The notes: generated by a model from the letters alone, not told the origin. A stretch of DNA of 61,615 nucleotides from Candidatus Firestoneibacteriota bacterium (GCA_038042445.1 JBBTED010000063.1:1-61615), one strand, 5' to 3'. Shown: positions 3,561 to 35,231, counted from the stretch's first letter. Numbers and translations: made by a program.

Positions 3561-4517
3561 TTAAGGTATAAAGGATAGGGAAATGCGATGTGTTCCTGAA
3601 ACATCATTCATAAAATTAAATGGGATTATAAATGCATAGTCAATGCCTATTTGGGAAGAATCCATAGGAAGTTTCACCCCAAATCCAACACTTGCATTTG
3701 AGTATTTGTTATTACCTATTGAATATCCGCCTCTTGCTGCAAATTCAAATGGGTCTTTTATTGAAAATTCAACACCTGTATTAATACTATAGTCTGATTT
3801 GCGCCAGTCATACTCCAAATTTCCTGTAACTGATTCTAAAAGTTTAGAGGATACTCCTGCTCTGAATAACATCGGGACTATATCTTCTTTATTAACACTT
3901 ACATCCGGTTGAGTCAAATTTTCTGCTGATAATCCAATTGTAAGATTATTGGTTAATGCTATTGGTTTTATTAAAAGCGAAATGTCTGCTGTGTATCCCC
4001 AAGCAGATGTTTTATTTGCAAACGCAGAATTTGCACTTGTATATTCATTTTCACCATACTTTTTGTTTAACAACTTTAATTTTAAACCAACATTAACCTC
4101 ATGAGTTTCTATTTTGGCATATTTTGTAGGTGAATAAGCTAAGGCCAAAGAAATAATACTTTCTCTGTAACTTGCACTTGATGAATCAGCTATTAAATGG
4201 TCCCACCCGCCTGCTAAAGTTGAATATTCTGATAATGGGTAAACATAAGATATTTCTCCCTGTGCTAAACCCGGAACCCCTACATAAAGCCTGGTATAAG
4301 TAGTTAAAAACATAAATTTTTGCACCTGAACTAAACCTGCTGGGTTATAATGCAATGCATTTACATCATCAGAAATTGCCACGAATGCCTTACCCATACC
4401 GGATGGCCTGGCGCCGCTGCCAATATCCATAAAGGCAGCATAAGAAGAAAATGCAAATGATAAAGTAAATAACATTAGAATTAAGAACATTTTAATTTTC
4501 AAATTATAATTTTTCAT
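3561..4517 (-). CDS. PorV/PorP-like (UPF0164-type) outer-membrane beta-barrel, copy 1
   Basis: Signal peptide, then AFMDIGSGARPSGMGKAFVAISDD..ALHYNPAGL; C-terminal IDYAF..P.....GTHRISL; start moved to ATG 4517 because the extension is a REP. Confidence 0.8.
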   Translation of the reverse strand: MKNYNLKIKMFLILMLFTLSFAFSSYAAFMDIGSGARPSGMGKAFVAISDDVNALHYNPAGLVQVQKFMFLTTYTRLYVGVPGLAQGEISYVYPLSEYSTLAGGWDHLIADSSSASYRESIISLALAYSPTKYAKIETHEVNVGLKLKLLNKKYGENEYTSANSAFANKTSAWGYTADISLLIKPIALTNNLTIGLSAENLTQPDVSVNKEDIVPMLFRAGVSSKLLESVTGNLEYDWRKSDYSINTGVEFSIKDPFEFAARGGYSIGNNKYSNASVGFGVKLPMDSSQIGIDYAFIIPFNFMNDVSGTHRISLSFIP

Positions 4518-4527
4518 TTTTAACTTT

Positions 4528-4650
4528 CGCAGGCTAAAGCCTGCGACTACCACTAAAATACACTAGATTCCAGCTATTTGTCAGGCAAGATGCCTGACCT
4601 ATTGCATGCGGGAATGACTTAACTTCCCTACCCCTCTTATCAGAGGGGGA
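4528..4650. repeat. Repeat cluster: GTAGTCGCAGGCTTTAGCCTGCG REP, nested composite element and a CCCCTCT/AGAGGGG hairpin
   Basis: 4528-4550 REP; 4561-4618 GATTCC...GCGGGAATGAC arm interrupted by gtcaggcaagatgcctgacctat; 4631-4649 hairpin. Confidence 0.8.
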
Positions 4651-4659
4651 TAAGAACAA

Positions 4660-7600
4660 TTATCTTGCAAGTATTACTGTGCCTTTACCTGCTACATTAT
4701 TTCCTGTTTTTATCTGGAATAAATATATTCCGCCTTCAACAACATCTCCTATAGAATTTTTGCCGTCCCAAGAAACACTTGTGGAACCTCCAGCTTGTAT
4801 TTCGTCACGAATTAATCTTCCTGTTATATCCCATATTTTCAGTCCAACATCGTCTCCTTCGTTATTCGGGAAACTAAATGTGACTTTATTAAAAACACTG
4901 TCAGGGCCCATAGGTGTAAATGGATTTGGAGACAAAGTAAGCTCTGAAATCAAATCCTGCTTTATAACTATAGCATATTTAGTAAGATGCGAAGTTTTGC
5001 CTTCTACAAGAACATTCCCACTCTTTACTTTAATTGTACTTGGCAAAATCTGCCAATTTAAACCATCCCAATATGCTACTGCCAATTTATTTTCTGCATC
5101 AGCAACTCTTGTTTTAGGATCACTATTATCAACATATATTCCATCTACACTTGGCGCACGCAAAGTAACAGTTATTGCTCCCTCAAGTGTATCTATTGAC
5201 TTGCCTGATTCAGTTGCTGTAATGTCAAAACATACTATTGCTTTTCTAGGTTGCCTTTTACCTTCTGGAGCAGTAGTAACTTTCTTTATACTATAAGATA
5301 ATGTTTTATTTATCACTCCAGCAGAAATATTTAGTTTTACTTCTGTATCATCAGCACTTGCTATTTCTGCAGCCTGGCCAGCTGGTATTTTCGAAGAAAA
5401 TATTAGTGATTGAATGGAACCAGTTTGGACCTGTGGGGTATCTCCAGACACAGTAACAGTTATGGTTTTTACCTCTGCTACTTTTGATTTGATTGTTGCC
5501 TTAACTTCACCATTAGCATCTGTAACCGTGCTCGCCTGCTCAAGTGTATTACCAGAACCACTTACAGCTATTGTAATAGTTGCATTACTTATTGCTCCAC
5601 CACCTCGGCTTTCATATTTAACAGTTACAGTTGCCAAAGTTGTATTATCTGCAGGTAATTCGTTTTTATCAGATGATATTGTTACATAAGTTTCGCCAAG
5701 CCACAAAACAGTACTTCCTGATTCTACTGAATCAGCATTACTACCAACTATGTAATTCATAAAAGATAATTTCGTACTGCTTTTTGCAGTTACATTAGTT
5801 CCAGATGAAATATCATCAAAAGTACATCCATTTAGTGTTTTAGTCTGACCATTTGAAATATTCAAATACGTTCCAGCAGCCTGGCCCTGCCTGAAATCAA
5901 CATAATTTAATTTATTTATTGTTGAACCAGTACTTATCACTAAACCACTTGTATTTGTTCCTTTTATTGTTAAACCACTTATATCTAATGTTCCACCTGC
6001 CACATTCATTCCATAATATGTCCCAGTTTCCTGCGACTTTATTGTGGCTTTATTATTAGAACTTGCATTACAAGTAAAAGCTCCATTTATTGTTATAGTT
6101 TTACCTGAATACACTTCCCAATTAGCACCTGAATTAAGTGTTACAACTTTTCCAGTTGCGATTGTGTAATCCCCTGTTATTAAAGTGCCTGATATTGTAG
6201 CTGCATTTAATGTAAGAGTGTATAAATTTTGTGTGCTAAGTGTGCCACCGAAAGATATATTAAAATTGTTTGAAACTGTGCAATTTCCAGCCAAATTAGC
6301 CCAACCAACAATATTCAAATTATACCAGGTTGTTGATGTTATAGGATTTGTATCACCTGTGGAAGTTGTATAAGGAAAACTTCCACCTGCAAAATTAAAA
6401 GTGCTTGTTCCAGCAGATATAGACAAATCTGCATTAGTAAGTGTTCCTTTTGTTACAGAACCTCCACTGCTATTGCTATTAGTTGCAGTATTGATAACTG
6501 ATGGTGTATACCCACCTGTTACTGTCCATGTGCTTGAACCTGCATCTATTCCAAGACGAGACATATTTATTATCCCAGCACTAACATTACCTGAAGCACC
6601 AGAAGCATTATTTGCAACCATTGAAATATAAGGATTTATAGTTCCAGTTACTGTCCATTTACTACTTTCAGCATTTATATAAACTTTACCAGTAATTGAA
6701 GCACCTGATATTGTCCTATTGCAATTAGCACTATTAGTATAATTATATATACTTGCATACATATTAACACTACCTCCGAGTGTCCAAGTGCTTGTTCCAC
6801 CATTTATTATCGCACTGCCAGCAATTGTTCCAGGAGTAATTGCATTTGTAGAAGTAGATGCACTATTATCATAATTTAAACAATATAAATACATATTTAC
6901 AGAGCCTGTAATATTAAATGTGGATGAACCTGCATCTATCCTTGCTTCAGTATTTGAATCCATACCACCAGATGAAGCATCTATTGCACCAGTTAAAGTA
7001 ACCGCATTAGTATAAAAAGTTTGCTGAAGATATATATTTAAATTATTTGTAACATTCACAGTTCCTCCGTTTTGCCCATTTAATATAACTTTACAATTTG
7101 TCCAAGCAAGTACAGTTTGAGAAGAACCAGTCGCTAGAATAGTTTTATTCTGATAAATATTTAAAGTACCACAAGTCAAAGTTTTGCTATTTAAATTTAG
7201 AGTCATAGAATAAGCATCACGAGCAGTAACAGCAGTGTAATATAGATACATATTAAAAACACCTGTAGTTTTTAAATCTCCTGCAAGTGTAACAGTAGAA
7301 GTAACTGCAGCAAACTGCCGAATAATTATAGTACCAGTATAATTTGTATATCCGGGAATTGAAGCAGTAGCTCCTGTAACAAGAAACGTAATATTTACAG
7401 TTATTGCAGTAGTATCAGAAATAATAAGATTACCAGCATTAGCATCACCATAACTGTATATATTTAGTGTTCCACTACCACCAACATTTGCAAAAGTACC
7501 ACTTCCAAGTGTAACCGTGCCATAAGCATCAACAACCTTTGAAGAAGGTATAGTTGTTGTAGTACTTGGCTGTGCGCAGGTTAGATTATAAAATGGTGCA

Positions 7601-8772
7601 TTACCACTACCATCTGTTTCAACTGTACCTGTTCCACTAAGGGTAACTGTTGAAGTACTTCGGACAAAATATGCAGTGGTAGCTGTAGCTAACCAATTGC
7701 CTGAACAAGTTATTAAACTCGTTCCTGAACAATTAATTCTTCCAAAAGCACCTATTGTAATATCATTTGCTGAAAGGCCTGTAGATGAACTTGCTGCTAT
7801 ACTTATCTGAGCACGATCATTTGAATCAGTGCCAGTAAGTGAAATATCGCCAGTTACTGTGCAATCATAAGTGCTTATATTCAATACCGTATCAGCGGTC
7901 CCATTATTATTATCCAAAATTGTTAAATTTCCGCCAATAGTTAAATTGGCTCCAAGTGTCATTATACTACTTGCATTTCCTGCAGAAGTAATACCTAAAT
8001 CACCGTCTATTGTAAGTGCATTGCTAACAGTTATTGTTCCTGTATAAGTGCTAATTGAAAAAGTTGTAAGCGAATTTGCAGGAGCTACATTCACTGTGCA
8101 ATTAGCACTACTTGTAGCATTAAATGTAACAGTATCACCAGCAGCCTGCCCCGGATATGTCCCATCATTTAAATCCCAGTTTGTAGTTGTGCCCCAATTA
8201 TTATCCCCACCGCCATTATTCCAAACAAAATTTTTAGCATAGCAAAAAGCAGGAACAATAAGTATTATTGCAAGTATTATTGTAGTTGCTGATTTATCAG
8301 CGGTTTTTTTTGCCGATGGGCCTGGAACTACTGATTTCGCCGATGAATCGGCAACTACATTATAGATTTCTTTTAAATCTATTTTTTCTTTCAATGGATT
8401 ATTTTTTATATATTCGCGGATTTTATCCAACGCTTTTTCTGTTCTTATTATATGTTCATAATAACCTGGTTGCCATAACCTCCGACCAGATTCCAAAGAA
8501 CACTTGGATTTAAATCTCCTAATTATTTCACCTAAACTAAATTTAGCCCCATCTAAAACCACAATTAAATGAAAATGATTGTTCATTATTTGATAAAAAT
8601 CTATTTTTACCCCACTAAATTCATCTTCAATTTTCTTTGTATGCCGCAGAATTATTTCTTTTTCTACATCAGAAAAGTTTAGATGATAATTACTAGAAAT
8701 AGTTACAAAGTAAAAACCATTTGTAGTATAGTCATATTGTTTCAACCGTATATTTTTTATTGTTTGTACCAT
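4660..8772 (-). CDS. Fusion ORF: N-terminal RAYT (Y1 HUH transposase) domain + translated REP cluster + signal h-region + large beta-rich surface protein with Ig-like domain and T9SS-like CTD (cargo 1)
   Basis: aa 1-137: RLKQYDY..GFYFVTI, MNNHFH (HUH), WQPGYYEHIIR, YIKNNP; no stop before VVADSSA...DKSATT-IILAIILIVPAFCYA; C-terminal PNPFTP...IWDITG...WDGKN...GKGTVILAR. Confidence 0.8.
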   Translation of the reverse strand: MVQTIKNIRLKQYDYTTNGFYFVTISSNYHLNFSDVEKEIILRHTKKIEDEFSGVKIDFYQIMNNHFHLIVVLDGAKFSLGEIIRRFKSKCSLESGRRLWQPGYYEHIIRTEKALDKIREYIKNNPLKEKIDLKEIYNVVADSSAKSVVPGPSAKKTADKSATTIILAIILIVPAFCYAKNFVWNNGGGDNNWGTTTNWDLNDGTYPGQAAGDTVTFNATSSANCTVNVAPANSLTTFSISTYTGTITVSNALTIDGDLGITSAGNASSIMTLGANLTIGGNLTILDNNNGTADTVLNISTYDCTVTGDISLTGTDSNDRAQISIAASSSTGLSANDITIGAFGRINCSGTSLITCSGNWLATATTAYFVRSTSTVTLSGTGTVETDGSGNAPFYNLTCAQPSTTTTIPSSKVVDAYGTVTLGSGTFANVGGSGTLNIYSYGDANAGNLIISDTTAITVNITFLVTGATASIPGYTNYTGTIIIRQFAAVTSTVTLAGDLKTTGVFNMYLYYTAVTARDAYSMTLNLNSKTLTCGTLNIYQNKTILATGSSQTVLAWTNCKVILNGQNGGTVNVTNNLNIYLQQTFYTNAVTLTGAIDASSGGMDSNTEARIDAGSSTFNITGSVNMYLYCLNYDNSASTSTNAITPGTIAGSAIINGGTSTWTLGGSVNMYASIYNYTNSANCNRTISGASITGKVYINAESSKWTVTGTINPYISMVANNASGASGNVSAGIINMSRLGIDAGSSTWTVTGGYTPSVINTATNSNSSGGSVTKGTLTNADLSISAGTSTFNFAGGSFPYTTSTGDTNPITSTTWYNLNIVGWANLAGNCTVSNNFNISFGGTLSTQNLYTLTLNAATISGTLITGDYTIATGKVVTLNSGANWEVYSGKTITINGAFTCNASSNNKATIKSQETGTYYGMNVAGGTLDISGLTIKGTNTSGLVISTGSTINKLNYVDFRQGQAAGTYLNISNGQTKTLNGCTFDDISSGTNVTAKSSTKLSFMNYIVGSNADSVESGSTVLWLGETYVTISSDKNELPADNTTLATVTVKYESRGGGAISNATITIAVSGSGNTLEQASTVTDANGEVKATIKSKVAEVKTITVTVSGDTPQVQTGSIQSLIFSSKIPAGQAAEIASADDTEVKLNISAGVINKTLSYSIKKVTTAPEGKRQPRKAIVCFDITATESGKSIDTLEGAITVTLRAPSVDGIYVDNSDPKTRVADAENKLAVAYWDGLNWQILPSTIKVKSGNVLVEGKTSHLTKYAIVIKQDLISELTLSPNPFTPMGPDSVFNKVTFSFPNNEGDDVGLKIWDITGRLIRDEIQAGGSTSVSWDGKNSIGDVVEGGIYLFQIKTGNNVAGKGTVILAR

Positions 8773-8801
8773 ATAATTATAGCCGATAAATCGGCGACTA
8801 C
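8282..8801 (-). mobile_element. RAYT1 module: RAYT domain flanked by REP-1 copies
   Basis: REP-1 at 8782-8801 upstream and a 77-bp REP cluster at 8282-8358 downstream of the HUH domain. Confidence 0.85.
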
Positions 8802-9886
8802 AATTCTGTTAATGTTAGTGAAACTCTATGTGTGCCTGTAACACCCTCTGCAAAATTTAATGGGTATATGAATGCATAATCAAGAGTAGAATGGACAAAA
8901 CCCAGTGGAAGTTTCAGACTAATGCCTCCACTTGCATCTGTGTATTTTCTGCTGCCGTAGCTTACTCCTGCTCTTAAACCGAAATTAGTCCATGTGTCAG
9001 GCAAGATGCTTGACCTATTAGCTGATGAATTAGATGCCGATAAATCGGCAACTACAGGACCAAACAACCAGTATTCCACGCCGTTATGGATGCTCCAATC
9101 AATGCCTCTTATTTTAAATTCAAAACTTTCAGTTAAATTATAGTCTAATTTTGCTGAGAAACCTGCTCTTATTATTGATGGAACTGAGCTTGTTGCAGCT
9201 ATACCCATATCCGGCTCATTTATATTTGTCAAAGAAAAACCTAAATTAAACTCTTCAAATATCACATCTTTCATTTTAAATAATGCTCCTATATCTATGC
9301 CAAAATTCCATTTATTTAAAGTAGTAAATAATGTATTTGCTTTTGTCCATTCATTTTCTATATATTTTTTATTTAATGCTTTTATATTTAAGCCAACTGC
9401 CATTTTAAAATTGGGTTCTGTTTTTTGTGCCGATAAATCGGCAACTACATTTTTTGACGGTGATATGGCAAAACTGATGCCATATATACCTTCTGCATAT
9501 CCTGCATCTGCACCTGATAAATTAAATGTAGATGCCATAAGCCCAAGTTTAAAATGCTTGGAAAACGGATAAATATATTCTAATGTTCCGTCATATAAAG
9601 ATTCAGGTATGCCCTGATATAATTTCGTATAAGTGGCAGAAAAAGTCATTTTGTCAATAAAAGCCATACCTGCAGGATTATAGTATAAAGCATTTGCATC
9701 ATCTGCAAGTGCAACAAACGCTTTACCTAAAGCAGAGGGCCTGGCGCCATAACCTGTGTCCATAAAGGCAGCATAAGAAGAAAATGTAAAATGAAAATTG
9801 CAAATTACAAAAGTAAGAATTAAAAAAATATTTCTACTTTTTCTTTTGAATTTTACACTTTGCAATTTACAATTTACAATTTTCAT
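8798..9886 (-). CDS. PorV/PorP-like beta-barrel, copy 2, with two in-frame REP insertions
   Basis: AFMDTGYGARPSALGKAFVALADDANALYYNPAG...GTHRVSLTLTEL; stop TAG is the GTAG of a REP. Confidence 0.8.
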   Translation of the reverse strand: MKIVNCKLQSVKFKRKSRNIFLILTFVICNFHFTFSSYAAFMDTGYGARPSALGKAFVALADDANALYYNPAGMAFIDKMTFSATYTKLYQGIPESLYDGTLEYIYPFSKHFKLGLMASTFNLSGADAGYAEGIYGISFAISPSKNVVADLSAQKTEPNFKMAVGLNIKALNKKYIENEWTKANTLFTTLNKWNFGIDIGALFKMKDVIFEEFNLGFSLTNINEPDMGIAATSSVPSIIRAGFSAKLDYNLTESFEFKIRGIDWSIHNGVEYWLFGPVVADLSASNSSANRSSILPDTWTNFGLRAGVSYGSRKYTDASGGISLKLPLGFVHSTLDYAFIYPLNFAEGVTGTHRVSLTLTEL

Positions 9887-9905
9887 TTTTTTATAATAAT
9901 TTATA

Positions 9906-9947
9906 GCCGATAAATCGGCAACTACAAATCCCCCTTTATCAAGGGGG
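9906..9947. repeat. REP-1 plus CCCCCTTT/AAGGGGG hairpin
   Basis: gccgataaatcggcaactac then ccccctttatcaaggggg. Confidence 0.85.
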
Positions 9948-9958
9948 AAGGAAAATTT

Positions 9959-12900
9959 TCATTTTGCTAATACTATTGTGCCTTTTTTAGCTACAGTATT
10001 GCCTACTTTCAGCATATAAATATATACACCGTCTTCTTCTATATTCCCTTGCTCATTTTTGCCATCCCAGGATAAACTTTCTCCATAACTTGCGGTTATT
10101 TCTTTGATTAGTATTCCTGTTAAATTCCATATTTTTATACTTACTGCTTGAACACTTGCATTTGGGAATGAAAACTGAACAGAGTTAAAACTGCTATCCC
10201 CGCTTAAAGGCATAAATGGATTTGGAAATACTTTCACTTCTGTAATAGGAATTGACTTAACTATAACTGCGAATCTTGAAAGATGATCAGTTTCACCTTC
10301 AACTAAAATATCCTTGCCATCACCAGATACAAGGACAGTTGAAGTTAATTCAGCCCACCTTTTTGAACTTTCATCCCATCTTGCTAATGTTAATTTGTCC
10401 GGAGCATCACTTATTCTAACAGCTCTGTTTGTATCATCTACATAAGTGCCATCTCCTGTAGTGTGCAATGTTATTTTTATTTTGCCGGAAAGCTGGCTTA
10501 CTTTAGACGAAGTACTATTATCAGTAGCCCATATATCATATACTACTACTGTATCTTTTGAACCAATAACTGCAACAGTTACTTCACTTGATAAAACTTT
10601 ATCAATATGAAAATTTAAACTCTTGTCAAGAACACCACCTGGAATATATACTTTTGTTTTATTATCATCTGATGAATAAAGAGAAGCTTCCTCACCTACA
10701 TTCACTAATGTATTAAAATTTATACTTGAATTTTGATATGTTATAGTTGCAGTGCTATCACCTTCAACGCTCGCTGTTATAGTTTTTACTTCTGATTTTG
10801 AAGATTTAACTGTAATTTGAACTTTACCATCAGTATCTGTAACACCAGAAGTTCCACTTACTGTATTACTGGTTCCACCTACTGTAATATTAATTGTCCC
10901 CCCTGGAATAGGGATATTAGCACGAGAGGTCAAAATTGCCGTAATAGTAGCTATACTTATATTATCCGCTCTGACTGAAGAAGAAGAAACAGAAACTGTT
11001 AAAACATTTCCGTTTGCCCACACAACACTTGAACCTGATTCCACAGTGTCCCCATTTGTTCCAACAGTATACCCTATAAATGTAAGTTTTGTGCTATTTG
11101 AAACTTTAACATTTTTACCAGATGAAATATCACTAAAAGTACAACCTGATAATGTTTTAGTTGCACCATTTGAAACGTCTAAATGGACACCACTTGCTTG
11201 CCCATTTGCAAAATCAACTGAATCTAATTTAGTTAATGTAGAAGCACTATTTATAACAAAACCATTTATATTTAAATATGATAATTGCAAACCTGAAACA
11301 TCTACTTCCCCACCTATACATCTCAATCCAAAAAACGAAGCAATATTAACAGAACTGATAGTTGGTTTTGAAGTATTAGTAGACGGGCAATAAAGTTTTC
11401 CGTTTATTGTTATTGTTTTGCCATTATTAAGATACCATGCTGAACCGCTATTTAAAGTAGCAGTTTTCCCTGAAGCAAGAAGGACATCATTAGTTGTCAT
11501 AACACCTGTATTAGTAAGCCCTCCATTTAGAACAAGAATATTTGTGTTTAAAGTTCCTGTATTGGTTAATAAACCTGCTACAGTTAAAGTGCTTGTATCA
11601 TTAGTTGAAAATGTACCACTGTTGCCAAAAGTCCCATTTAAAACCAAATTAGTCGCGTTAATACTTGATACAACAGAATTATTAGTTAATATACCTGTTA
11701 CAGTTAAAGTGTATGAACTCAAATCAATATTATTATTTAATGTAAGATTATTATTTACTGTCCCATTTTTTGTTAATGTAATTGCTCCGGTTAAATCCAG
11801 ATTATACCATGTGGTTGATGTTATAGGATTTGTAGCACCACTTGCACTAACAACTGGAAGATTTGCAGTATTTGAGAATTTAAAAGAACTTGTACTACTT
11901 GATATTGTTAAATCAGCATTTGTTAAAGTTCCTATATTAGCAGCACCTGCCCCACCTTGTGTGGCAGTATTTGTAACACTTGGATTATACGTTTGACCTA
12001 CTACCCATGTGCTTGCTCCTGCATCTATACCTATTCTTCCCACATTCATTGTTCCAGATGAAAGAGCATTTGAACTGGTATTACTTACAGTCATTGTTAC
12101 ATAAGGATTGACATTACCCGCTACATTCCATGTGCTATTTCCTGCATCAATATACGCTTTACCTGTAATTGAACCACCTGATATAGTTGCAGATGTAGAA
12201 GCACCTGTTGTAGAATAGTCCATACTTGCATAAGTATAAACACTACCTCCTACTGTCCAAGTGCTTGTGCCACCATCTATCACTGCATTTCCTGCAATTA
12301 TACCTTGTGTAACTGTCATATCACTTCCATTTGTAGAAGAACTATCCAATAATAAATATACTTTTACAGAACCTGTAATATTAAATGATGCTGAACCTGC
12401 ATTTATTCTTGCTTCAGTATTTGAATCAAAAGTAGAAGCTCCAGCATTTACTGTATCATCATCGGTTTCAGCATCACCAAAATAACGTTGGCGTAAATAT
12501 ATAGATACACTGTCAGAAACATTCACTATCCCACCACTTGCTCCGCTTAGTATAGCTTTACAATTAGTAAAATTTAAAGGAGTATATGTAGCAGAACCCG
12601 AAAGATTTAAAACTCTGTAACAATAAACATTTAAATTAGTACAAGACAAAGTTTTTCCATTTAAATTTAACGTTATAGAAGTATTCGCCAAGGCATTAAC
12701 AGTATTATTATTAATATATACTTCAACAGGCCCTGTGTTTCTCACATCACCAGCAAGAGTAAGTGTTCTGGAAGAACTATTATTAGGATAAATATAGAAT
12801 ATCCCATAATTCTGATATGCAGGCAAAGAAGCATCTGCTGAAAGATTAAAAGCTAAAGCAGTACTTATTGCAGCCGGATTACTAGAAACATCAAGAGAAG

Positions 12901-16477: not shown

Positions 16478-16527
16478 GTAGTCGCTGATTTATCAGCGAT
16501 TTTTTATGCCGATAAATCGGCAACTAC
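16478..16527. repeat. REP-1 inverted doublet
   Basis: gtagtcgctgatttatcagc...gccgataaatcggcaactac. Confidence 0.9.
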
Positions 16528-27025: not shown

Positions 27026-27039
27026 AATATTTCTTTTTT

Positions 27040-27133
27040 GTCATTCCCAACTTGATTGGGAATCCAGTGTCTTGCTTTTAATGATGCTTTACCATATTTA
27101 AAGACTCTGGATTCCCGCTTTCGCGGGAATGAC
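27040..27133. repeat. GTCATTCCC...GGGAATCCAG / CTGGATTCCC...GGGAATGAC double hairpin
   Basis: Read directly; second full copy at 59508-59588. Confidence 0.85.
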
Positions 27134-27277
27134 GAGCTTGTGCCAAAACTCCATTTTGTCATCCTGAACACATTCGTTTTACTCAGTGTAAACTCCGTGA
27201 AGGATCTCGTTTTTAAAAGACTTTTAAACGAGATTCTTCGGCTACTGCCTCAGAATGACACCTTTTGGCACAGGCTC
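27134..27277. mobile_element. MITE-like element with 15-bp terminal inverted repeats, flanked by TGAC direct repeats and containing a nested GTCA...TGAC hairpin
   Basis: gagcttgtgccaaaa / ttttggcacaggctc (1 mismatch); TGAC at 27130-27133 and 27278-27281; inner element 27158-27259. Confidence 0.6.
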
Positions 27278-27289
27278 TGACGCTTCGCA

Positions 27290-28261: not shown

Positions 28262-28602
28262 TTTTTATTATCTTCCAATATAGATTTTATCTGCTTTTTT
28301 AAATTTGGCAATTCATGTTTTATGTTTTCCCAAACTGCAGAAATATCTACCCCAAAATATTCATGAATTAGTATATTTCGCAATCCTTTCATACTTTTCC
28401 ATGGTATGTGCGGATAATTCTTTTTAATCTCGTCTGAAATATTCTTACTGGCTTCGCCAATTATTTCAAAATTTCTTATAACCGCATCTATAGTTTTTCT
28501 ATCTTTTTCAAATTCCTCAAATAAAATATTTTCTGTGTATTTTTCTATTAAAATTATAGAATCAAAAATATGCTTAAGGTAAATTTTGTAATCTTTATCC
28601 AA
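28258..28602 (-). CDS. HEPN (DUF86/HepT-like) toxin
   Basis: DAVIRNFEIIGEA...IPW..M.GLRNILIHEYFGVD with R-X4-H motif; TTG start overlapping the MNT gene. Confidence 0.9.
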   Translation of the reverse strand: MDKDYKIYLKHIFDSIILIEKYTENILFEEFEKDRKTIDAVIRNFEIIGEASKNISDEIKKNYPHIPWKSMKGLRNILIHEYFGVDISAVWENIKHELPNLKKQIKSILEDNKK

Positions 28603-28885
28603 TCGCTTCTGCCTCTCTTAAAATATATGGTTCTACATATTTATTTAATCCATTTTTTGACACCACACTCACATCTTTTTCTAAAATTTCTGAAAGACAA
28701 TTTTGAAAATCAATAAGTTCAAATAATGTCACATCTTTATCAAATTCCACAAGAAAATCTATATCGCTATTTTTTTTTTGTTCATTTCTCACATAAGAGC
28801 CAAAAAGTGAAATAGATATCACTTTGTATTTTTTTAAAAGTATTTCATTTTTTAATATAATATTTTTAATTTCTTCTTTTGTCAT
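28595..28885 (-). CDS. Minimal nucleotidyltransferase (MntA-like antitoxin)
   Basis: LFGSYVRNEQ..SDIDFLVEF; 96 aa; directly upstream of HEPN. Confidence 0.9.
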   Translation of the reverse strand: MTKEEIKNIILKNEILLKKYKVISISLFGSYVRNEQKKNSDIDFLVEFDKDVTLFELIDFQNCLSEILEKDVSVVSKNGLNKYVEPYILREAEAIG

Positions 28886-28894
28886 TTTAAACCT

Positions 28895-29033
28895 GCCGAT
28901 AAATTTTCTCTCTTTCGGCGACTACAGATCCTTCGCTTCGCTCAGGATGACGCTTCGCGCAGATCCTTCGCTTCGCTCAGGATGACGCTTCGCGCAGATC
29001 CTTCGCTTCGCTCAGGATGACGCTTCGCGTCAT
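28895..29033. repeat. Interrupted REP-1 followed by three tandem 35-bp units
   Basis: agatccttcgcttcgctcaggatgacgcttcgcgc starts at 28926, 28961 and 28996; the last unit ends in the ATGACGCTTCGCGTCAT hairpin. Confidence 0.9.
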
Positions 29034-31675
29034 TTTGCTACTATTACTGTGCCGTTATATCTGGAATTTCCTACTTCTATTTGCCAGATATGTATTCCGC
29101 TTTCAACAACTGTATTAGATGAATTAACACCTGTCCATTCAATATTTTGTGATGAAGAAAATGTATCCTCTCGGATCAAAGCGCCCTCAAGATTGAAAAT
29201 TTTAAGAGACACTGAATTACCTTCAGCATTATCAACACTAAATACAACTTTATTATTAGGAGAATAATTTGGGGTAAATGGATTTGGGCCAAAAGCAATA
29301 CCGCCTTTCTTTTCAACCATAACCATTATAGTAAGTGCCTGGCTAATAAGACCTGTGCCTTTTGCTTCAACTATATAAAATCCAATCATTTTAGTTTCGT
29401 TTGAAGACAACGTATAACTAACCAAACCTGTTAAATCTGTACTTGTATTTACAACATATTGGCTTTTATCTGGCCTTGTAATTGTAATAGTTATCGCTAT
29501 ATTAGACAAAGGATTCCCTGCTTCGTCTTTTGCCGACCAATTTAAAACAACACTATTGCCTGTTATAATATTTTGATTGCCAGATGTTGGAACTAAATTC
29601 TTACTGCTTTCAGAACTAACACTAATTGTTGGCTCAGATAAAACTACAGGTCTTTTATATGCATTTAAGCTATTTGCAAATGGAGCAAAAAATACTGCAT
29701 CAAAAAGACACAAAGGCTGATATGTTCTACTATAAATTGCCCTTATTTCTGCATCAGTTAATACTCTATCATAAATAGCTACATCTGAAATAATAGCTTC
29801 AGGATTATTATTACCAGGTGCAAAATACATTCCGTTACTATAATCTCCTACAATAGACGATTTCATAGAATTTGCATCACTACTTGCCTGGTAATCCGAA
29901 TTAACAAAAATTTTTGCACCTTCACTACCCCAGGTATATGCAAGGAAAATCCAGCCATCTGTATCTAAATGTGTAAGACTGCCAAAATAACTTGAGTTTG
30001 ATATGTAATAGTCTAAATTCTTCAACAAAAATGGAGATGGCAAAACAAAATCCACATACGAACCAGATAATTTAAATACATCTGTCAATTGCCTACGCCA
30101 TCCTGTAAATTTCATATTGTTACTATCGGACCCATAAAATCTTAATATATGATATTCTGACGCTGTTACAATATAAAAATAATTGTACACACCTATATCA
30201 CCTGCAATACTACCATATCTTGTATCAGTCGTATAAAACTCAGGTTTCACCCACATAACCAAAGTTCCTTTATCTCTATTAAAATTTCCTGAAGTAATTG
30301 GATAATATAATGTTTCAACAGCACGTGTGGTATTCGAACTTGGATTTGCAACTAATGGTGGAGTAAAACTTGTAGGATGAAAACTTTCTTCAATCTGAAC
30401 ACAATCTATATCTACAGAACCACCACCATCTTGATAATAGAAAAACGCCACCTGTAAATATCTAACGTTTGAGGTCGGAACTATATATTTAAGCCAAAAT
30501 CTCTCCCACGTATTTGCCTTTGTGTTTCTTATATTCATTGGAGTTATGTCAATTCCAGAACCTGTTGCAGGAATATTAGCATTATAAGTAGTACTATCTA
30601 CTTTCCATCCTATAGGAGCAGCTGATGAAGTTATATTAGAACCAGTAGAATCAATATTTCTTATTCCTACCATATATCTTGCAGAAGTACTACTTGCCCT
30701 TCCATACCAGGAAATTATAACTGTTTTCCCATCCCAATTTGTTGATGAGCTACTAGGATCATACAGCATAACATTTTTTGCAATTGCTATTCCACAATTA
30801 GTACTTGTTCCATTTCCAAGACGCACATAACCACTACCTTTTGCTCCACCATCGCTTTGCCGGGATATTCTACCGCTTGAACCACCTATGCTCGTATCCC
30901 AATCCGTAGAAGGATTTATACCTATATCATTCCAATTTGAAAGATCTGTTTCAAAATCTGTATTTATAATATAATTTCTGACATATCGTTCAAGCAGTAT
31001 TCCTCTGTCATACTTGCCGTAAGTAAAACGTGGTGTATTAGTTCCTACTTCTGTTAAATCGTCCGGCTGGCATGCACTTGACCCTCTGGTAAAATTTGGT
31101 ATTTGCGCCACAAATATTTTATCAAGATTTTTTGGTGGAAATTCTGTCTCTTTTGAATTTCCATAATAGATATAATAATTTTCATCTATTGCACCTGTAA
31201 GTATATTTGTTTGTAATCTAAAATAAGTGGAAGAAACTGAATATACCAAACCAGTATCTAATGTTATATCATTATAATTGGAGTCCTGGTCAGGAACATA
31301 ATATCTATCTAACTCTGTCCATGCTAAACCGTTCCAATAAAGAATACGCCAGTCTTTTCTATCCGGCGTGATTCCTGTAAATGCCTGAAGCCCGCCTGTT
31401 TTTTGCAAAGCAATTGTATCAACTGAAAGTTTGACAACATAATTGGTATCTAATGTATAAGGTACAGTATTTGTAATTGTAATTTTTTTTCTGTATGTAT
31501 AGCCGGTAAAATCTTTATTTCCCACTATAGTAGGCCAAGGCAAAGAAGCAGATATACAAGCAGAAACAAATGCAAATTGCAAAATGTAAAATGCAAAATG
31601 TAAAATTAAAGAATTAGTAATAAATTTTCTTTTTCTTAATTTTGCAATTTTCATTTTGCAATTTTCATTTTGCAT
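29030..31675 (-). CDS. Secreted DUF2341-like/LamG-like protein with T9SS-like CTD (cargo 6)
   Basis: YTYRKKITITN; KGTLVMWVKP...ISDVAIYDRVLT; GPNPFTP...IFNLEG...NGTVIVAK. Confidence 0.75.
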   Translation of the reverse strand: MQNENCKMKIAKLRKRKFITNSLILHFAFYILQFAFVSACISASLPWPTIVGNKDFTGYTYRKKITITNTVPYTLDTNYVVKLSVDTIALQKTGGLQAFTGITPDRKDWRILYWNGLAWTELDRYYVPDQDSNYNDITLDTGLVYSVSSTYFRLQTNILTGAIDENYYIYYGNSKETEFPPKNLDKIFVAQIPNFTRGSSACQPDDLTEVGTNTPRFTYGKYDRGILLERYVRNYIINTDFETDLSNWNDIGINPSTDWDTSIGGSSGRISRQSDGGAKGSGYVRLGNGTSTNCGIAIAKNVMLYDPSSSSTNWDGKTVIISWYGRASSTSARYMVGIRNIDSTGSNITSSAAPIGWKVDSTTYNANIPATGSGIDITPMNIRNTKANTWERFWLKYIVPTSNVRYLQVAFFYYQDGGGSVDIDCVQIEESFHPTSFTPPLVANPSSNTTRAVETLYYPITSGNFNRDKGTLVMWVKPEFYTTDTRYGSIAGDIGVYNYFYIVTASEYHILRFYGSDSNNMKFTGWRRQLTDVFKLSGSYVDFVLPSPFLLKNLDYYISNSSYFGSLTHLDTDGWIFLAYTWGSEGAKIFVNSDYQASSDANSMKSSIVGDYSNGMYFAPGNNNPEAIISDVAIYDRVLTDAEIRAIYSRTYQPLCLFDAVFFAPFANSLNAYKRPVVLSEPTISVSSESSKNLVPTSGNQNIITGNSVVLNWSAKDEAGNPLSNIAITITITRPDKSQYVVNTSTDLTGLVSYTLSSNETKMIGFYIVEAKGTGLISQALTIMVMVEKKGGIAFGPNPFTPNYSPNNKVVFSVDNAEGNSVSLKIFNLEGALIREDTFSSSQNIEWTGVNSSNTVVESGIHIWQIEVGNSRYNGTVIVAK

Positions 31676-31720: not shown

Positions 31721-31771
31721 GTAGTCGCTGATTTATCAGCAGTTTTTTTATGCCGATAAATCGGCAACTAC
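31721..31771. repeat. REP-1 inverted doublet between two copies of the pilX-like 3' end
   Basis: gtagtcgctgatttatcagc...gccgataaatcggcaactac. Confidence 0.9.
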
Positions 31772-31780: not shown

Positions 31781-34700
31781 CTATTCTCCTGTTCCAAATA
31801 GTGAATCAATTAATCCACTTGTAGTATTAGCTACTATAGTTTCAGGCATATCAAGTGAATTTTTTAAATCAACTAAAAAATCCTCTGCCTGACTTGGCTT
31901 AGTTTCCTGCCAATTTGTAATTCGTATATCTATTGGCATATGAGGTGGTAAATCCTTTCTGAAACTTGTAGCATAAGACCACATTATGGCATCATTATAA
32001 TTACTGTAAGAATGATTTGTAATTAGCTCATCTATATATCTATCAGCATAATATGCATCTTTTGGATCTGTTTTTGAAACATTGATACTATTTCCCAATA
32101 TATTTGAACCATATAACCAGCAATTATTATAATCCTTATTTAATGAACGTGGATAACCTCCTAAACTAAACAATCTATTTCCCTGGGTAATTGCTACTAC
32201 TTTATTGAGTTTCATAAAAAACGCCTGATCAGTTGAAGATAATTCAAACACTGGTTTAGCTATATTATTACAATAGAACTTAAATACATTTTTTGCTGTA
32301 ACTATTCCAACTGGATTTGCACGTTCATCATCCCAGGTTAAATTACTAGAACGATATGTCCCATTTTTACTTAAATCACCATCATTATCATAATAACCAG
32401 CATTTATAGTTGATAAATATACATCCTCTGTAGAAACAACAGTAATTTTTTTCTTTGGAATACCGAAAACTACAATCGGAACTTCAGAAAATATAACACC
32501 ATCTTTAGGATAATTAGCTTCAGGTATATCGGATAAATTAATAGATATTGCTTCAACATAAGGATCCGTACCAATAGCATACCCTTGTGAACTTGGATTT
32601 GCAATTTGAACATTTAGAGTTGTAGCTTCAGTGTCGGTGGAATTATATGAAATTGTCAGTAATTTACCGCCTTTTAAATTAGGAACATTATTTGCAAACT
32701 GAATCATTCCAGAAGCAGGAAAATTCGTATATGTATAATAAGGATATTGCGCATCATTTGGATATATCTTACCAGCAGTGCCAAAACTTGTATCAACTGT
32801 ATTATCAAGCTTTATTACTTCAAGATATGCATAGTATCCCGGAAATATAGCCCTACTATTAACACTAGACGAAATAATATTAATACTCAGACAACCAAAC
32901 CACCATTGTGTTGGAGCAGTTCCTGTATCATAAACTCCATTATAATTCGGAATCATTGGACGCCTGCTAATTGTAACACCATAGAGACAGCGTATCGCAC
33001 CAAAAGTTTTATAACCAGTTCCAAAAGAAGTACTAGGCAAAGAACGTGTGTTTATTACTTCATTAACATATAAACCAAAATCGCCTCCAGAAGGCAAACC
33101 CAACATTTTAAATCTTGGGTCACTACTATTACCATAGTTTCCACCATAAGTAAAACCACTTGACGCATCATATAAAACATCATTTCCTTCAAGCCCACCC
33201 TCTCCAAGTGGATGTGAATGCACACCACTTGTAGGATTATATACTGCCATAGTGTAACTATAACCAGGTATAGCCCCATTATCTGCTACAATATCTACAT
33301 TTCCTGACAATATAAATTGTGGCAACTGGTACAAAGGAACGTTATAATGTCCTGCGCCATCTGCTACTTTCATCGGCCCATTTATTTGCGAAGCAAGTGT
33401 TATTGTATTTGTCAAATCATCTATATTAGCTATATTTATATCCGGCATAGTATATACTACTTCCTGTGTAGAAGGATTAATTGCATATAAATATTTTAAT
33501 CTATTTGCAGAAACTAATTTACCTGCAGTAGTTACACCTTGATTAAATATTATATTAGATTTCATCGTTGATGTCTCAGCTCCACTTCCTATAAATGAAG
33601 GCAAATATTGATAGTCAACATCATTAGTTAAAGGCACAGTAGTTGGCTGATTTTCTGAAACAGCAACATCAACTCTAACACCTGCTACTATACGTTGTGT
33701 TCCAGGAGCAATATCTACTAACATAGGCGTAAATGCTGACCAGTAAAAACCATTATTTGCAACATCAATTTTATCCATTGCATCTGTTTGAATAGAATAA
33801 GGAAACCTTTGGCTGTTTTTTGCCCTATAAGTAGCAGACGGACCTGCATTCCATGGATTAATTGCTCTAGTAGTTCCTATATATTCTGTGCCATGATTTT
33901 TAAATTTATATTTATATTCTGAAATTTTCTCAAGTGGCTCTTTCTTTTTTATAACATCATTATAAAACCCGACTTTTTTACCATAATATGCAGATGCAGA
34001 ATCAACACTTTTTATATGCCAACGTTCATCAATAAATGGTTTAAAAGCAGTAACAATTTCAGTTATTGATGGAATTTTAATTGTCTGTCCCCCATGCAAA
34101 CCGTCCATTAAAAGTCTCTCTATACTTCCATCTGTTTTTGTAATCTGAAATGTTACATCAGGTGATTTTCCACCTGAATAAGACGGCAAAGGAACATAAG
34201 GGTCTTTAACTCTTGTCGTATTATTAACATATCCAATTGTATTAAATCTATTTGATAAATAAAACCTTCCTGTATCAAGTTCATTGATGCTTGTTCCATA
34301 ACTAAAACTTGATTCATCTGACCCTTGAGTCATATTGAATTTAACTTTACCCATTCCAATTATTACCTTGCTTTCCGGGGTAGTATAATTAGAACCAGCA
34401 GAATTAGTCCACTTTTCAGTGCATTTCCCACGCCATACTATGCCAGTACAAGATACAGCTGGCCCTTTTAATTCCTCAGGCTTTAATATTATAGTAGCAG
34501 ACCCTGGAATTTGTATACTTGAATAAGGTGCCATTGTCCCAGAAGGACCAGAATCTATAAAAATTGAACCATTCGCATGAACAGGACCATATACTTTAAG
34601 TGGAACCCAATAACCTTCATTTATATTCATACTTCCAAATAATGCACCATTCCCATTAAAAAAAAATAAAAAATCTGTAGGGCAGGTTATACTTACAGCC

Positions 34701-35107
34701 ATTATTAACGCCTGCTTTGATAATTTTGCCTCTTCACCTATTTGTTTTGCATTTGAATATTCATTCGTTGAAACTGCAAAACCTTCTGCAGCTATATTCA
34801 TTTCACGCACACCTAAACCTTCAGTAGGCGCCATTCCTGCTTTAAACATTCCTTCTCCAAAATCTACTCCTGCAATATAATCGTACTGCAATTGCTTAAA
34901 TTTATCTGGGTCATCAAAATAATATTTTCTGATATCGTATAGTATCTGATTTGCACCTGCTTTAGCTATCCATCTTGCCTTCACAACATCACCCTCAACA
35001 GAAACCAACTTAAACTGCGTAACAGTAAGCGATAAAAATGTCCCGGCAAGCACAAGTAAAACAGACATAACAACAAGACTCAATATCAGAATCGAACCTT
35101 TATCCAT
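31781..35107 (-). CDS. Very large PilX/GspK-like minor pilin (~1,108 aa)
   Basis: MDKG|SILILSLVVMSVLLVLAG...KARWIAKAG is a PilX-type N-terminus; YGPVHANG; the upstream ORF extension is REP-derived. Confidence 0.65.
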   Translation of the reverse strand: MDKGSILILSLVVMSVLLVLAGTFLSLTVTQFKLVSVEGDVVKARWIAKAGANQILYDIRKYYFDDPDKFKQLQYDYIAGVDFGEGMFKAGMAPTEGLGVREMNIAAEGFAVSTNEYSNAKQIGEEAKLSKQALIMAVSITCPTDFLFFFNGNGALFGSMNINEGYWVPLKVYGPVHANGSIFIDSGPSGTMAPYSSIQIPGSATIILKPEELKGPAVSCTGIVWRGKCTEKWTNSAGSNYTTPESKVIIGMGKVKFNMTQGSDESSFSYGTSINELDTGRFYLSNRFNTIGYVNNTTRVKDPYVPLPSYSGGKSPDVTFQITKTDGSIERLLMDGLHGGQTIKIPSITEIVTAFKPFIDERWHIKSVDSASAYYGKKVGFYNDVIKKKEPLEKISEYKYKFKNHGTEYIGTTRAINPWNAGPSATYRAKNSQRFPYSIQTDAMDKIDVANNGFYWSAFTPMLVDIAPGTQRIVAGVRVDVAVSENQPTTVPLTNDVDYQYLPSFIGSGAETSTMKSNIIFNQGVTTAGKLVSANRLKYLYAINPSTQEVVYTMPDINIANIDDLTNTITLASQINGPMKVADGAGHYNVPLYQLPQFILSGNVDIVADNGAIPGYSYTMAVYNPTSGVHSHPLGEGGLEGNDVLYDASSGFTYGGNYGNSSDPRFKMLGLPSGGDFGLYVNEVINTRSLPSTSFGTGYKTFGAIRCLYGVTISRRPMIPNYNGVYDTGTAPTQWWFGCLSINIISSSVNSRAIFPGYYAYLEVIKLDNTVDTSFGTAGKIYPNDAQYPYYTYTNFPASGMIQFANNVPNLKGGKLLTISYNSTDTEATTLNVQIANPSSQGYAIGTDPYVEAISINLSDIPEANYPKDGVIFSEVPIVVFGIPKKKITVVSTEDVYLSTINAGYYDNDGDLSKNGTYRSSNLTWDDERANPVGIVTAKNVFKFYCNNIAKPVFELSSTDQAFFMKLNKVVAITQGNRLFSLGGYPRSLNKDYNNCWLYGSNILGNSINVSKTDPKDAYYADRYIDELITNHSYSNYNDAIMWSYATSFRKDLPPHMPIDIRITNWQETKPSQAEDFLVDLKNSLDMPETIVANTTSGLIDSLFGTGE

Positions 35108-35108
35108 A

Positions 35109-35231
35109 TTAGTTGCCGATTTATCGGCTTGTAGTTGCCGATTTATCGGCAAAAAAAACGCTGATGAATCAGCAACTACAAAACAATTATTATAATAATA
35201 TTTGTAGGGAACAGGCATGCCTGTTCCCTAC
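35109..35231. repeat. Three REP-1 arms plus GTAGGGAACAGGCATGCCTGTTCCCTAC palindrome
   Basis: Arms at 35109-35128, 35131-35150 and 35160-35179; perfect palindrome at 35204-35231. Confidence 0.9.

Follow-up and report, generated by a model that had tools for sequence, protein, structure and literature searches.

In the metagenome-assembled genome (MAG) of a Candidatus Firestoneibacteriota bacterium (GCA_038042445.1), positions 3,561 to 35,231 of a 61,615-nt contig (JBBTED010000063.1:1-61615, contig C63, hereafter the window) hold an array of genes for secreted proteins and outer-membrane barrels, with palindromes and small nuclease genes at the gene borders. An earlier sequence-only reading of this DNA had proposed that the repeats, together with the HUH and GIY-YIG nucleases encoded among them, act as an integrase-free means to duplicate, insert and swap surface-protein genes, the whole being stabilised by a toxin-antitoxin pair. 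Our analysis indicates that the locus is probably an old tandem array of envelope-protein genes that has been colonised by known hairpin-nuclease systems. Its modules look like known kinds of element and not like a new gene-shuffling machine, and these elements look like known selfish or domesticated repeat systems settled where they are least harmful. The MAG (2.81 Mb in 181 contigs, ~33% G+C, 90% complete) belongs to an uncultured groundwater lineage.

Paralogous genes for secreted proteins and outer-membrane barrels

In the direction of transcription, the locus runs secretin, cargoA, cargoB, MNT, HepT, barrel_323, cargoC, RAYT2, cargoD, a 94-aa GIY-YIG gene, cargoE, barrel_471, barrel_333, cargoF, barrel_362, the RAYT1-cargoG open reading frame (ORF), barrel_330 and a RodZ-like gene (Table 1; RAYT, tyrosine transposase associated with repetitive extragenic palindromes, REPs). 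The four accessory modules share one orientation, as the sequence-only reading had pointed out (all are on the minus strand), but this is not specific to them, 41 of the 42 genes called on the contig lying on that strand.

The five barrels are paralogs of the PorV/PorQ family (31-42% identical to barrel_330), of which barrel_330 scores 102.2 bits against the PorV_fam cut-off of 90 bits and the other four 54-86 bits. Cargos B-G carry Ig-like, Laminin_G_3 or NHL domains. Their C-terminal ~250 residues are common to cargos C-G, whereas cargoB shares only the last ~90-190; the C-terminal domain (CTD) part of the PorU model matches the same five cargos (C-G), and the type A sorting domain TIGR04183 passes its cut-off only in cargoE (25.2 vs 23 bits). 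A cargo with a beta-sandwich sorting tail followed by a FadL-fold PorV-family barrel recalls the cargos of the type IX secretion system (T9SS) of Bacteroidota and their PorV/PorQ or PorP/SprF-like carriers, unlike which only barrel_330 and cargoE pass the family cut-offs here. Genome-wide, we found 26 PorV-family and 21 CTD-type matches, PorU being matched only through its CTD part; full-length PorU was not found in this 90%-complete genome, and neither were SprA_N and GldM, the searches for which were also silent in all 14 control genomes. 'T9SS-like' is thus used here for a resemblance between predicted proteins, not for a demonstrated system.

Paralogs in the array are only 31-44% identical and there are therefore no recent copies among them; judged from this divergence, they are old. 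The array is also lineage-specific at this site, at the level of the class, a statement that is silent on strain-level gene order and recent dynamics. Of thirty relatives, 12 belong to the same class and none to the same family. The 12 same-class genomes have secretin orthologs that are 46-51% identical, and none of 16 array proteins had a match (E<=1e-5, >50 bits) in eight loci downstream of such orthologs. In two genomes of the same class, G002 and G004, housekeeping genes follow the secretin instead, beginning with enolase, a CsgG-like gene, DUF1646 and ThrRS, and in G002 the RodZ-like gene and DUF520 come 9.8 kb later. A scan of metagenome contigs with barrel_333 returned only two weak partial matches (45-51% identity over 36-43 residues) and no close relative.

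Hairpin repeats at gene borders are a genome-wide trait

From the secretin to the RodZ-like gene there are 17 boundaries, namely 14 gaps (25-264 nt) and 3 overlaps (4-8 nt). All 14 gaps contain a 14-mer that is repeated at least three times in the genome, 13 contain one repeated at least five times and 12 one repeated at least ten times. The observation that essentially every gene boundary carries a repeat is correct in this sense, the remaining three boundaries being overlaps, and the two ATGA overlaps that had been noticed are also real (23635-23638, RAYT2 stop and cargoD start; 28258-28261, HepT stop and barrel_323 start). As a background, we took the 1059 co-directional gaps of at least 20 nt elsewhere in the genome, defined by crude longest-ORF gene calls. 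At the same three thresholds, 87.7%, 64.5% (683/1059) and 42.5% (450/1059) of these contain repeats. The array thus exceeds the genome average, as the sequence-only reading would have it (one-sided Fisher test, p=0.019 at >=5x and p=0.0013 at >=10x), but the excess is only moderate, over a background that already reaches 64.5% at >=5x. Junctions beside PorV-family or CTD genes on other contigs were not generally repeat-rich (22/36 vs 760/1185).

Two REPtrons lie within the array

The most frequent palindromes are of one family, REP_A, which consists of GTAG, a 6-bp stem and a short loop and occurs mostly as inverted doublets (REPINs). The genome holds 200 copies at up to 4 mismatches, with 42 doublets, and 177 copies at up to 3 mismatches, spread over 50 contigs. 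With 19 of the 200 copies in 1.1% of the genome, REP_A is 8.4x enriched in the array and its density peaks in two 4-kb bins around RAYT1 (7 and 4 copies). This local peak is probably explained by the presence of the cognate RAYT within the array: RAYT1 is the sole RAYT of the genome that is flanked by REP_A (REP_A at 8782 and REPIN at 8282-8358). A notion that REPs in the array are younger was dropped, the array copies being no nearer to the consensus than copies elsewhere (p=0.69).

In total, the genome encodes five Y1/RAYT genes, each adjoining a palindrome of its own (four GTAG-headed, and a TAGG-headed one on contig C59), and the corresponding five REP families have 177, 23, 71, 10 and 51 copies (<=3 mismatches). 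Several of these families supply copies to the array junctions, which are shared by at least five unrelated genome-wide repeat families. RAYT2 (ORF 23635-24243) has its own REP type (GTAGCGGCAGAGC..., the 23-copy family), with one copy upstream (24266-24288) and one in frame at its 3' end (23744-23766); the ORF continues through the REPs until its stop overlaps the cargoD ATG. Of the three other RAYTs of the genome, one follows a single CTD-protein gene, one is part of an integrase/primase island and one stands between uvrB and a radical-SAM gene.

Both array RAYTs pass the Pfam Y1_Tnp cut-off of 23 bits (RAYT1, within the fusion ORF, 23.5 bits; RAYT2, 43.5 bits) and both fall under the 80-bit cut-off of NCBIfam REP_Tyr_transpos (63.5 and 68.4 bits). 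Their best match among solved structures is TnpA-REP (4ER8, E=3.3e-5), with the HUH (H-x-H) and tyrosine (...YI.NNP) regions aligned. For TnpA-Y1 subclass 2.4, Quentin et al. (2018; PMC6006769) list the motifs NH[IFV]H, WQ and YIxNNP, all of which are present in RAYT1 (NHFH, WQ, YIKNNP), and RAYT2 departs from them at two positions (THIH, YIDNNA). The two proteins are 54-55% identical, and no RAYT1 homolog was found in the 12 other same-class genomes at E<=1e-10.

Altogether, these features are those of REPtrons, as known from E. coli TnpA-REP (4ER8), P. fluorescens REPINs and the subclass survey (PMC6006769): an HUH/Y1 RAYT flanked by GTAG-headed palindromes, a dispersed REP family made mostly of inverted doublets, and several such families with their own RAYTs in one genome. 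In-frame REPs within subclass 2.4 RAYT genes are also in print (PMC6006769), and for GTAG REPs the supply of TAG stops, in-frame location within genes, coexistence of several families and RAYTs, and a position flanking a surface-polysaccharide gene cluster have been described (PMC3733652). Unlike known REPtrons, neither RAYT1 nor RAYT2 has a stop codon before its 3' REP, the RAYT1 ORF runs on into a secreted protein of 1,200 aa that has no start codon of its own, and two non-sister REPtrons lie 15 kb apart within one paralog array of an uncultured host.

Why the inserts stay translatable

The sequence-only reading had also drawn attention to the fact that the intruding modules keep the operon translatable. 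This follows from properties of the elements combined with selection. REP_A is open in four of its six frames, and in a fifth its GTAG yields a TAG stop, which is the stop codon that barrel_362 uses. Forty-four REP_A copies lie wholly within called ORFs; 33 of these read VVADLSA or ADKSATT and 32% fall in the first tenth of the ORF. At their 3' ends (...KEKID.K..YN), RAYT1 and RAYT2 lead straight into their own 3' REP, with the GTAG in codon phase 0, where it is read as Val. We examined the 3' ends of 45 of 49 RAYT relatives from many phyla: in 7 of the 45, translation would end at the TAG of the 3' GTAG, and most others stop within 36 codons. A phase difference of one base therefore suffices to convert a REP that supplies the stop into one that is read through.

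Compared with its paralogs, barrel_362 has two in-frame REP inserts (9429-9448, REP_A; ~8996-9055, REP_A plus a C59-type REP), both of which are placed between predicted strands in a moderate-confidence structural model based on a five-sequence alignment (predicted local distance difference test, pLDDT, 62.5; predicted template modelling score, pTM, 0.65). CargoF and cargoG share 44% identity along their whole length, in an alignment that begins exactly at the translated 78-nt REPIN in the leader. Aligned without gaps, the two REPINs match at 19/20 and 16/20 positions in the arms and 28/38 in the spacer, and the 600 nt that follow are 73% identical; the second arm differs at four positions, which form two compensatory pairs. 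The REPIN therefore predates the duplication of the unit, and the hairpin has been kept since.

Rickettsia palindromic elements (RPEs) are likewise short palindromes that are found in frame and translated in apparently intact genes (PMC3733652). Unlike RPEs, the copies described here are GTAG-tagged, have a cognate RAYT and are concentrated in leader regions and barrel loops. RPEs are CGTC-tagged and are not known to have a dedicated transposase.

Upkeep of the stems raises the question whether the host itself keeps the hairpins, as a means of tuning expression along one long unit of co-directionally transcribed genes through mRNA 3'-end protection, cargo/barrel attenuation or antisense termination. 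REPs do have described roles in mRNA stability and termination (PMC3733652). All six stem pairs are kept in 178 of the 200 REP_A copies by way of compensatory variants, the leader REPIN is less conserved in its spacer than in its arms, and array REPINs mostly (5:1) present a hairpin followed by a T-run on the antisense strand, sense-strand terminator-like sites being found only after the secretin, cargoF and barrel_330. Conservation of the stem is, however, equally expected of a RAYT substrate, and no orientation bias was seen outside the contig (7 A-run vs 6 T-run REPINs on the sense strand between co-directional genes), so that an orientation rule was dropped; a promoter scan gave counts equal to those of shuffles and was uninformative. 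Expression tuning thus strikes us as a rather improbable account of the repeats, though one that would be compatible with colonisation of an old array by known elements.

RAYT ORFs are joined to envelope proteins through translated REPs

The ORF that joins RAYT1 to cargoG (4660-8772) is unbroken. From the end of the RAYT1 core (8359) to the hydrophobic region of the cargoG signal peptide (~8250), none of the codons ATG, GTG and TTG occurs in frame, which confirms the in-frame fusion that had been noticed from the sequence. Predicted ORFs of this type, in which a RAYT is joined via translated REPs to an envelope protein, recur independently in other phyla. At two Omnitrophota loci, L032 (2489-4678) and L037 (2027-4042), the RAYT ORF extends through translated REPs (GAIYR...) for another 592 and 533 codons, respectively, and goes on to encode a large protein with K-G and a hydrophobic helix at its start but without a separate Met; both loci sit downstream of genes with a prepilin N-methylation motif, within minor-pilin operons. 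A search for longer homologs added three further fusions: P0005 and P0006 resemble the L032/L037 pair, and P0004 combines the RAYT with a different, unrelated partner, which likewise has a hydrophobic helix at its start and contains an internal Met. Fusions are therefore seen on three unrelated partners (cargoG, the L032/L037/P0005/P0006 family and the P0004 partner).

We take the K-G plus hydrophobic helix of the fusion partners to be a prepilin-like motif, a label that rests on this motif and on the N_methyl genes upstream in L032 and L037. PilX_N was not detected at E<=1 in cargoA or in the fusion partners, and cargoA, which also begins with a K-G and a hydrophobic helix (Table 1), has no significant similarity to P0005 and is not detectably related to these partners. 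Cleaved N-termini, whether signal peptides or prepilin leaders, would tolerate large additions, and only such fusions may therefore survive. That the RAYT acts as a functional N-terminal 'leader' of the envelope protein, split off by signal or leader peptidase and riding on the translation of a surface gene, is a tentative idea suggested by these ORFs, and we regard it as unlikely. Long proteins of this kind were put aside as 'gene fusions or annotation errors' when the enzyme family was surveyed in 2018 (PMC6006769), and a literature search that did not cover supplementary tables returned no description of RAYT ORFs fused via translated REPs to secreted or membrane proteins. The fusions are flagged here as a recurrent oddity of predicted ORFs; if they are real proteins, they would represent a new expression route for a domesticated transposase and offer a simple experimental handle on RAYT biology.

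The GIY-YIG module is Ssn-like

The 94-aa GIY-YIG protein consists of a single domain (Pfam GIY-YIG, 64 bits, residues 3-76), and its nearest solved chains are the UPF0213 proteins 1ZG2 and 1YWL. Its gene has one GTCAT-headed hairpin of ~70 nt upstream and two downstream, and its stop codon lies inside GTCATTCTGA. The string CTCAGCATGACA[A/G]CAAAATTATGA precedes both the GIY-YIG gene and cargoE, so that the former does reproduce the start context of the latter, as had been read; the context is shared because the same ~70-nt hairpin element precedes both genes. A small GIY-YIG gene on contig C79 is bracketed in the same way, including a copy of hairpin and spacer before the ATG of the next gene. 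There (C79:16902-17646), tandem 11-nt units (GAGATGCTGAT) stand before the hairpins, five of them on the upstream side and about two on the downstream side. Other GIY-YIG copies in the genome occupy contexts unrelated to the array; a small gene at C21:49418-50147 stands beside an apparent tRNA gene end, without GTCAT hairpins.

Small GIY-YIG nucleases with hairpin repeats that cluster around surface genes have been described as the Ssn/NTS-SRM system, in which the enzyme is a single-domain protein of 94 aa and its gene is arranged as NTS-ssnA-NTS (Chenal et al., 2025; PMC11893778). The array module is like it in that a 94-aa single-domain GIY-YIG protein is bracketed by oriented hairpins starting with GTCAT. 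Elements headed (C)GTCAT form a group, of which the copy at 27107 matches exactly both the NTS motif and the SRM search pattern; this pattern has 46 sites in the genome, vs ~0.2 per Mb in Markov shuffles. None of these matches lies within 400 nt of any of the four small GIY-YIG genes, and the flanking hairpins share only the GTCAT head and a GAATC tail. Because the elements beside the array and C79 genes fail the published SRM pattern, we describe the module, from its sequence features, as Ssn-like and do not call it Ssn. It also differs from Ssn in that the downstream hairpin copy recreates the start context of the next gene.

Around the exact match (26946-27612), contig depth in all four metagenome runs described below is 164-1379, vs ~1-12 in most other bins; hairpins of the NTS/SRM type and those next to them are therefore common to many organisms of these groundwater communities.

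MNT-HepT and the comparison with integrons

By its Pfam matches, the MNT-HepT pair is an ordinary type VII toxin-antitoxin pair: NTP_transf_2 (MNT, 56.8 bits) and HepT-like (112 bits) are both above their cut-offs, the NCBIfam equivalogs being below theirs, and the two genes overlap by 8 nt. The genome has six HepT genes, the others in unrelated contexts, and finding one within 31.8 kb is unremarkable (P=0.066). Co-oriented genes with imperfect palindromes between them and a toxin-antitoxin pair inside are also what integron and superintegron arrays display, and it was with such pairs in large integrons that MNT-HepT had been compared. No integrase or recombinase family was found among 20 proteins scanned (2685-38843) and Rfam gave no match; moreover, unlike in integrons, the palindromes come from at least five unrelated genome-wide families instead of one attC class, and what would be the 'cassettes' are paralogs of 3-4 kb, each with a signal peptide of its own.

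No evidence of cassette exchange in contigs of four groundwater runs

Near-identical DNA is present in groundwater runs of four studies. We compared positions 8270-28269 with the Logan contigs of runs X3, X4, X6 and X10, from four studies; the study of X3 is also that of the probable source samples. These contigs are short, with breaks at repeats, and the comparison has low power. Wherever a contig bridges a junction, it agrees with the window. X3 contigs bridge 8281-9447 (0 differences), 12190-14712, 19744-22580, 22659-24292 and 24263-27064 with 0-1 differences, and a contig of X4, another study, bridges 13195-13946. All 15 alternative joints listed, of 27, have 21-27 letters on their shorter side, which is repeat noise, and none listed has at least 30 letters on both sides; the breakpoints at repeats that the sequence-only reading would have metagenomic data contain are thus not found in these short contigs. 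An X4 contig has a 15-nt insertion at 8798, at the border between the barrel_362 stop and REP_A (depth 4.3 of 21.8), which is a population variant at a REP edge.

These results bear on the claim that the REPs and the HUH and GIY-YIG nucleases form a dedicated integrase-free system of cassette duplication, insertion and swapping, stabilised by MNT-HepT. Part of it stands: the repeats are nuclease-linked and, like the RAYT genes, enriched in the array (REP_A 8.4x), the 5' borders of four large genes coincide exactly with a RAYT or a REPIN, and REP_A marks either end of the clearest duplicated unit (cargoF-barrel_362/cargoG-barrel_330), as a REPIN at the 5' edge and as a REP at the barrel stop or no more than 55 nt away from it. 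There is also a parallel in Neisseria, where NTS/dRS3 hairpins cluster at surface and virulence genes and have been discussed as recombination substrates (PMC11893778). Insertion and swapping of surface genes are not borne out, given the divergence of the paralogs, a leader REPIN that was inherited through duplication and not newly inserted, array REPs that are no younger than others, junctions occupied by at least five unrelated families, the lack of supported alternative joints among those listed for the short contigs of the four runs, copies of RAYT, GIY-YIG and HepT in unrelated contexts, and the absence of a recombinase among the 20 proteins scanned. RAYTs are, furthermore, presented in published descriptions as single-copy, domesticated enzymes acting on REPs and not on cargo. 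We therefore judge a dedicated exchange system to be very unlikely.

A mis-assembly at repeats, which a 181-contig MAG with ubiquitous repeats and the X4 insertion variant might suggest, is an extremely improbable source of the gene order or of the RAYT1-cargoG read-through, since independent X3 contigs bridge many of the junctions and an X4 contig bridges one more stretch.

How an old array may have been colonised

If the array is an old one that known elements colonised, the following course of events would account for its features. Lineage-specific paralogs encoding secreted proteins with T9SS-type tails, each usually followed by a PorV/PorQ-like barrel, would have formed the array early. 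REPs at the edges of cargo-barrel units may have provided homology for this old tandem duplication by ordinary unequal recombination; REPs have been found at a minority of amplification junctions in E. coli and at the origin of F'128 (PMC1428787). In a repeat-saturated genome, independent elements of known kinds (REP/REPIN with RAYT, Ssn-like GIY-YIG and MNT-HepT) would then have settled at gene borders. By analogy with E. coli TnpA-REP (PMC3733652), the RAYTs would cleave and rejoin REP hairpins at GTAG in single-stranded form, and the REPs spread in this way would be densest close to the RAYT gene itself, so that the RAYT1 REPtron is a plausible source of the genome's main REP family. The GIY-YIG unit, judging from the architecture at two loci, would insert beside a start codon and bring with it a copy of the hairpin and spacer that precede the ATG. 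Two causes could together give the locus its 'designed' look: the open frames of REP_A, the TAG stops in GTAG and a RAYT clade whose genes abut their 3' REP on the one hand, and on the other a selection that purges gene-breaking insertions and leaves survivors in gaps, cleavable leaders and barrel loops.

Several observations weigh against this account. The excess of frequently repeated 14-mers (12/14 array gaps vs 450/1059 elsewhere at >=10x, p=0.0013) is accompanied by REP_A at 6/14 array junctions vs 82/1059 elsewhere (p=4.5e-4), and two of the genome's five RAYTs lie within 31.8 kb (post-hoc Poisson P=0.0015), an excess of repeats and RAYTs that leaves room for a special relation between the elements and this locus. 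REP_A is weakly in excess also at surface-gene junctions on other contigs (7/36 vs 87/1185, p=0.017), where it is 2.4-3x over-represented within 2-5 kb of PorV-family genes, and 15.3% of its copies lie within 5 kb of PorV-family or CTD genes, vs 6.3% of the genome. The genome-average repeat level may itself be underestimated, MAG assemblies breaking at repeats. In a tree of 34 RAYTs (hand-picked, 31 of 49 loci), the partner of RAYT2 is an Elusimicrobia RAYT (support 98/98) rather than RAYT1; two separate REPtrons therefore appear to have reached one array, instead of one being a recent local duplicate of the other. Finally, cargoG has no canonical start codon of its own, which passive tolerance explains incompletely.

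If colonisation of an old array is nevertheless the right account, a 'cassette array' that looks engineered can be the product of ordinary ingredients, namely a genome saturated with repeats, REP-RAYT and Ssn-like systems, and selection that spares only harmless insertions. REPtrons and Ssn-like modules would thereby be extended to an uncultured groundwater lineage, and in-frame REPINs in signal-peptide leaders would be seen to persist through old gene duplication.

Features of the locus and minor observations

The coordinates of all features are collected in Table 1. Upstream of the array, positions 35254-46879 hold a pilus/secretion cluster with the PilQ-type secretin, a LuxR-type response regulator and a PilO-like gene, so that the array is wedged between this cluster and RodZ/DUF520/MiaB. 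The cargoA ORF as listed starts within a GTAG palindrome (35201..35234), and its likelier true start is the ATG at 35107. Profile scans detected neither a Pfam family nor a CTD in cargoA, which probably belongs with the adjacent pilus genes rather than with the cargo/barrel series. Rfam and tRNA scans gave no matches.

Table 1. Genes, modules and repeat elements of the array and its borders, in the direction of transcription (window coordinates)
Feature	Position	Strand	Remarks
PilQ-type secretin	35254-36924		gene just upstream of the array
GTAG-type palindrome, directly 3' of the secretin	35201..35234	-	same type as the palindrome beside the contig C74 RAYT
REP_A REPIN doublet upstream of the likely cargoA start	35131..35179		sense-strand hairpin and T-run, terminator-like
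cargoA	31781..35107	-	large protein, 1,108-1,145 aa, begins MDKG plus hydrophobic helix
REP_A REPIN, cargoA/cargoB junction	31721..31771		
cargoB	29030..31675	-	881 aa, Laminin_G_3, weak T9SS-type tail
cargoB/MNT junction	28886..29029	-	three tandem 35-nt CGTCAT-headed units plus degenerate REP_A
MNT-HepT pair	28258..28885	-	MNT 28595-28885, HepT 28258-28602
barrel_323	27290..28261	-	PorV/PorQ-family outer-membrane barrel, under family cut-off
264-nt junction	27026..27289	-	several hairpin elements; exact match to the published NTS/SRM pattern at 27107-27134
cargoC	24326..27025	-	899 aa, Laminin_G_3, CTD-like tail
REPtron 2 (RAYT2 and its own REPs)	23635..24288	-	RAYT2 core 23767-24201
cargoD	20177..23638	-	1153 aa, NHL beta-propeller repeats, CTD-like tail
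GIY-YIG module	19602..20176	-	gene 19762-20046, 94 aa
cargoE	16533..19601	-	1022 aa, Laminin_G_3, T9SS type A sorting domain barely above cut-off
REP_A REPIN, cargoE/barrel_471 junction	16478..16527		
barrel_471	15020..16435	-	PorV-like barrel, charged C-terminal extension of ~150 aa
REP_A REPIN, barrel_471/barrel_333 gap	14970..15018		fills the gap exactly
barrel_333	13959..14960	-	heptamer palindrome 14855-14956 encodes the signal peptide
78-nt in-frame REPIN in the cargoF leader	13719..13795		VVADLSA...ANKLATT, 12 codons past the ATG
cargoF	9959..13831	-	1290 aa, Big_1, CTD-like tail; full-length paralog of cargoG
cargoF/barrel_362 junction	9887..9958	-	G-rich hairpin and T-run 9948-9929 (sense-strand terminator-like), REP_A 9906-9925
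barrel_362	8798..9886	-	its TAG stop is contributed by the GTAG of the REP_A at 8782-8801
RAYT1 core	8359..8772	-	138 aa, HUH is H-F-H, WQ, YIKNNP; no stop codon of its own
78-nt in-frame REPIN joining RAYT1 to the cargoG signal peptide	8282..8358		VVADSSA...ADKSATT
cargoG body	4660..8281	-	Big_1, CTD-like tail; 44% identity to cargoF, starting at the REP
cargoG/barrel_330 junction	4554..4659	-	G-rich hairpin, GTCATTCCCGC-type piece, C59-type REP 4580-4601
barrel_330	3561..4553	-	PorV/PorQ family, 102 bits vs 90-bit cut-off
Last junction	3435..3560	-	REP_A 3488-3507, sense-strand terminator-like

The tail of barrel_471 (15020-15480, ~150 aa), which its four paralogs do not have, is Glu/Lys-rich and probably helical. 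Another kind of repeat, made of heptamers in inverted orientation (TTTTGCA/TTTTACA and their complement), occurs at 14855-14956, 9781-9882, 31568-31670 and 16372-16435 as well as on contigs C11, C44 and C90. Its two arms together encode a signal peptide, the A-rich one giving the Lys-rich start (MK.VNCKMQSVKFK) and the T-rich one the hydrophobic core (ILTFAFCILHFAF). The genome has 17 heptamer tracts of at least three units, 8 of which lie in the same orientation at the 5' ends of genes for non-homologous proteins. Contigs of the four runs, in which rare variants are dropped, showed no gain or loss of 7 nt at these tracts. Four perfect TTTTGCA heptamers in the coding sequence of barrel_333 recall the slipped-strand phase variation of opa genes, and the palindrome at 31568-31670 encodes the signal peptide of cargoB.

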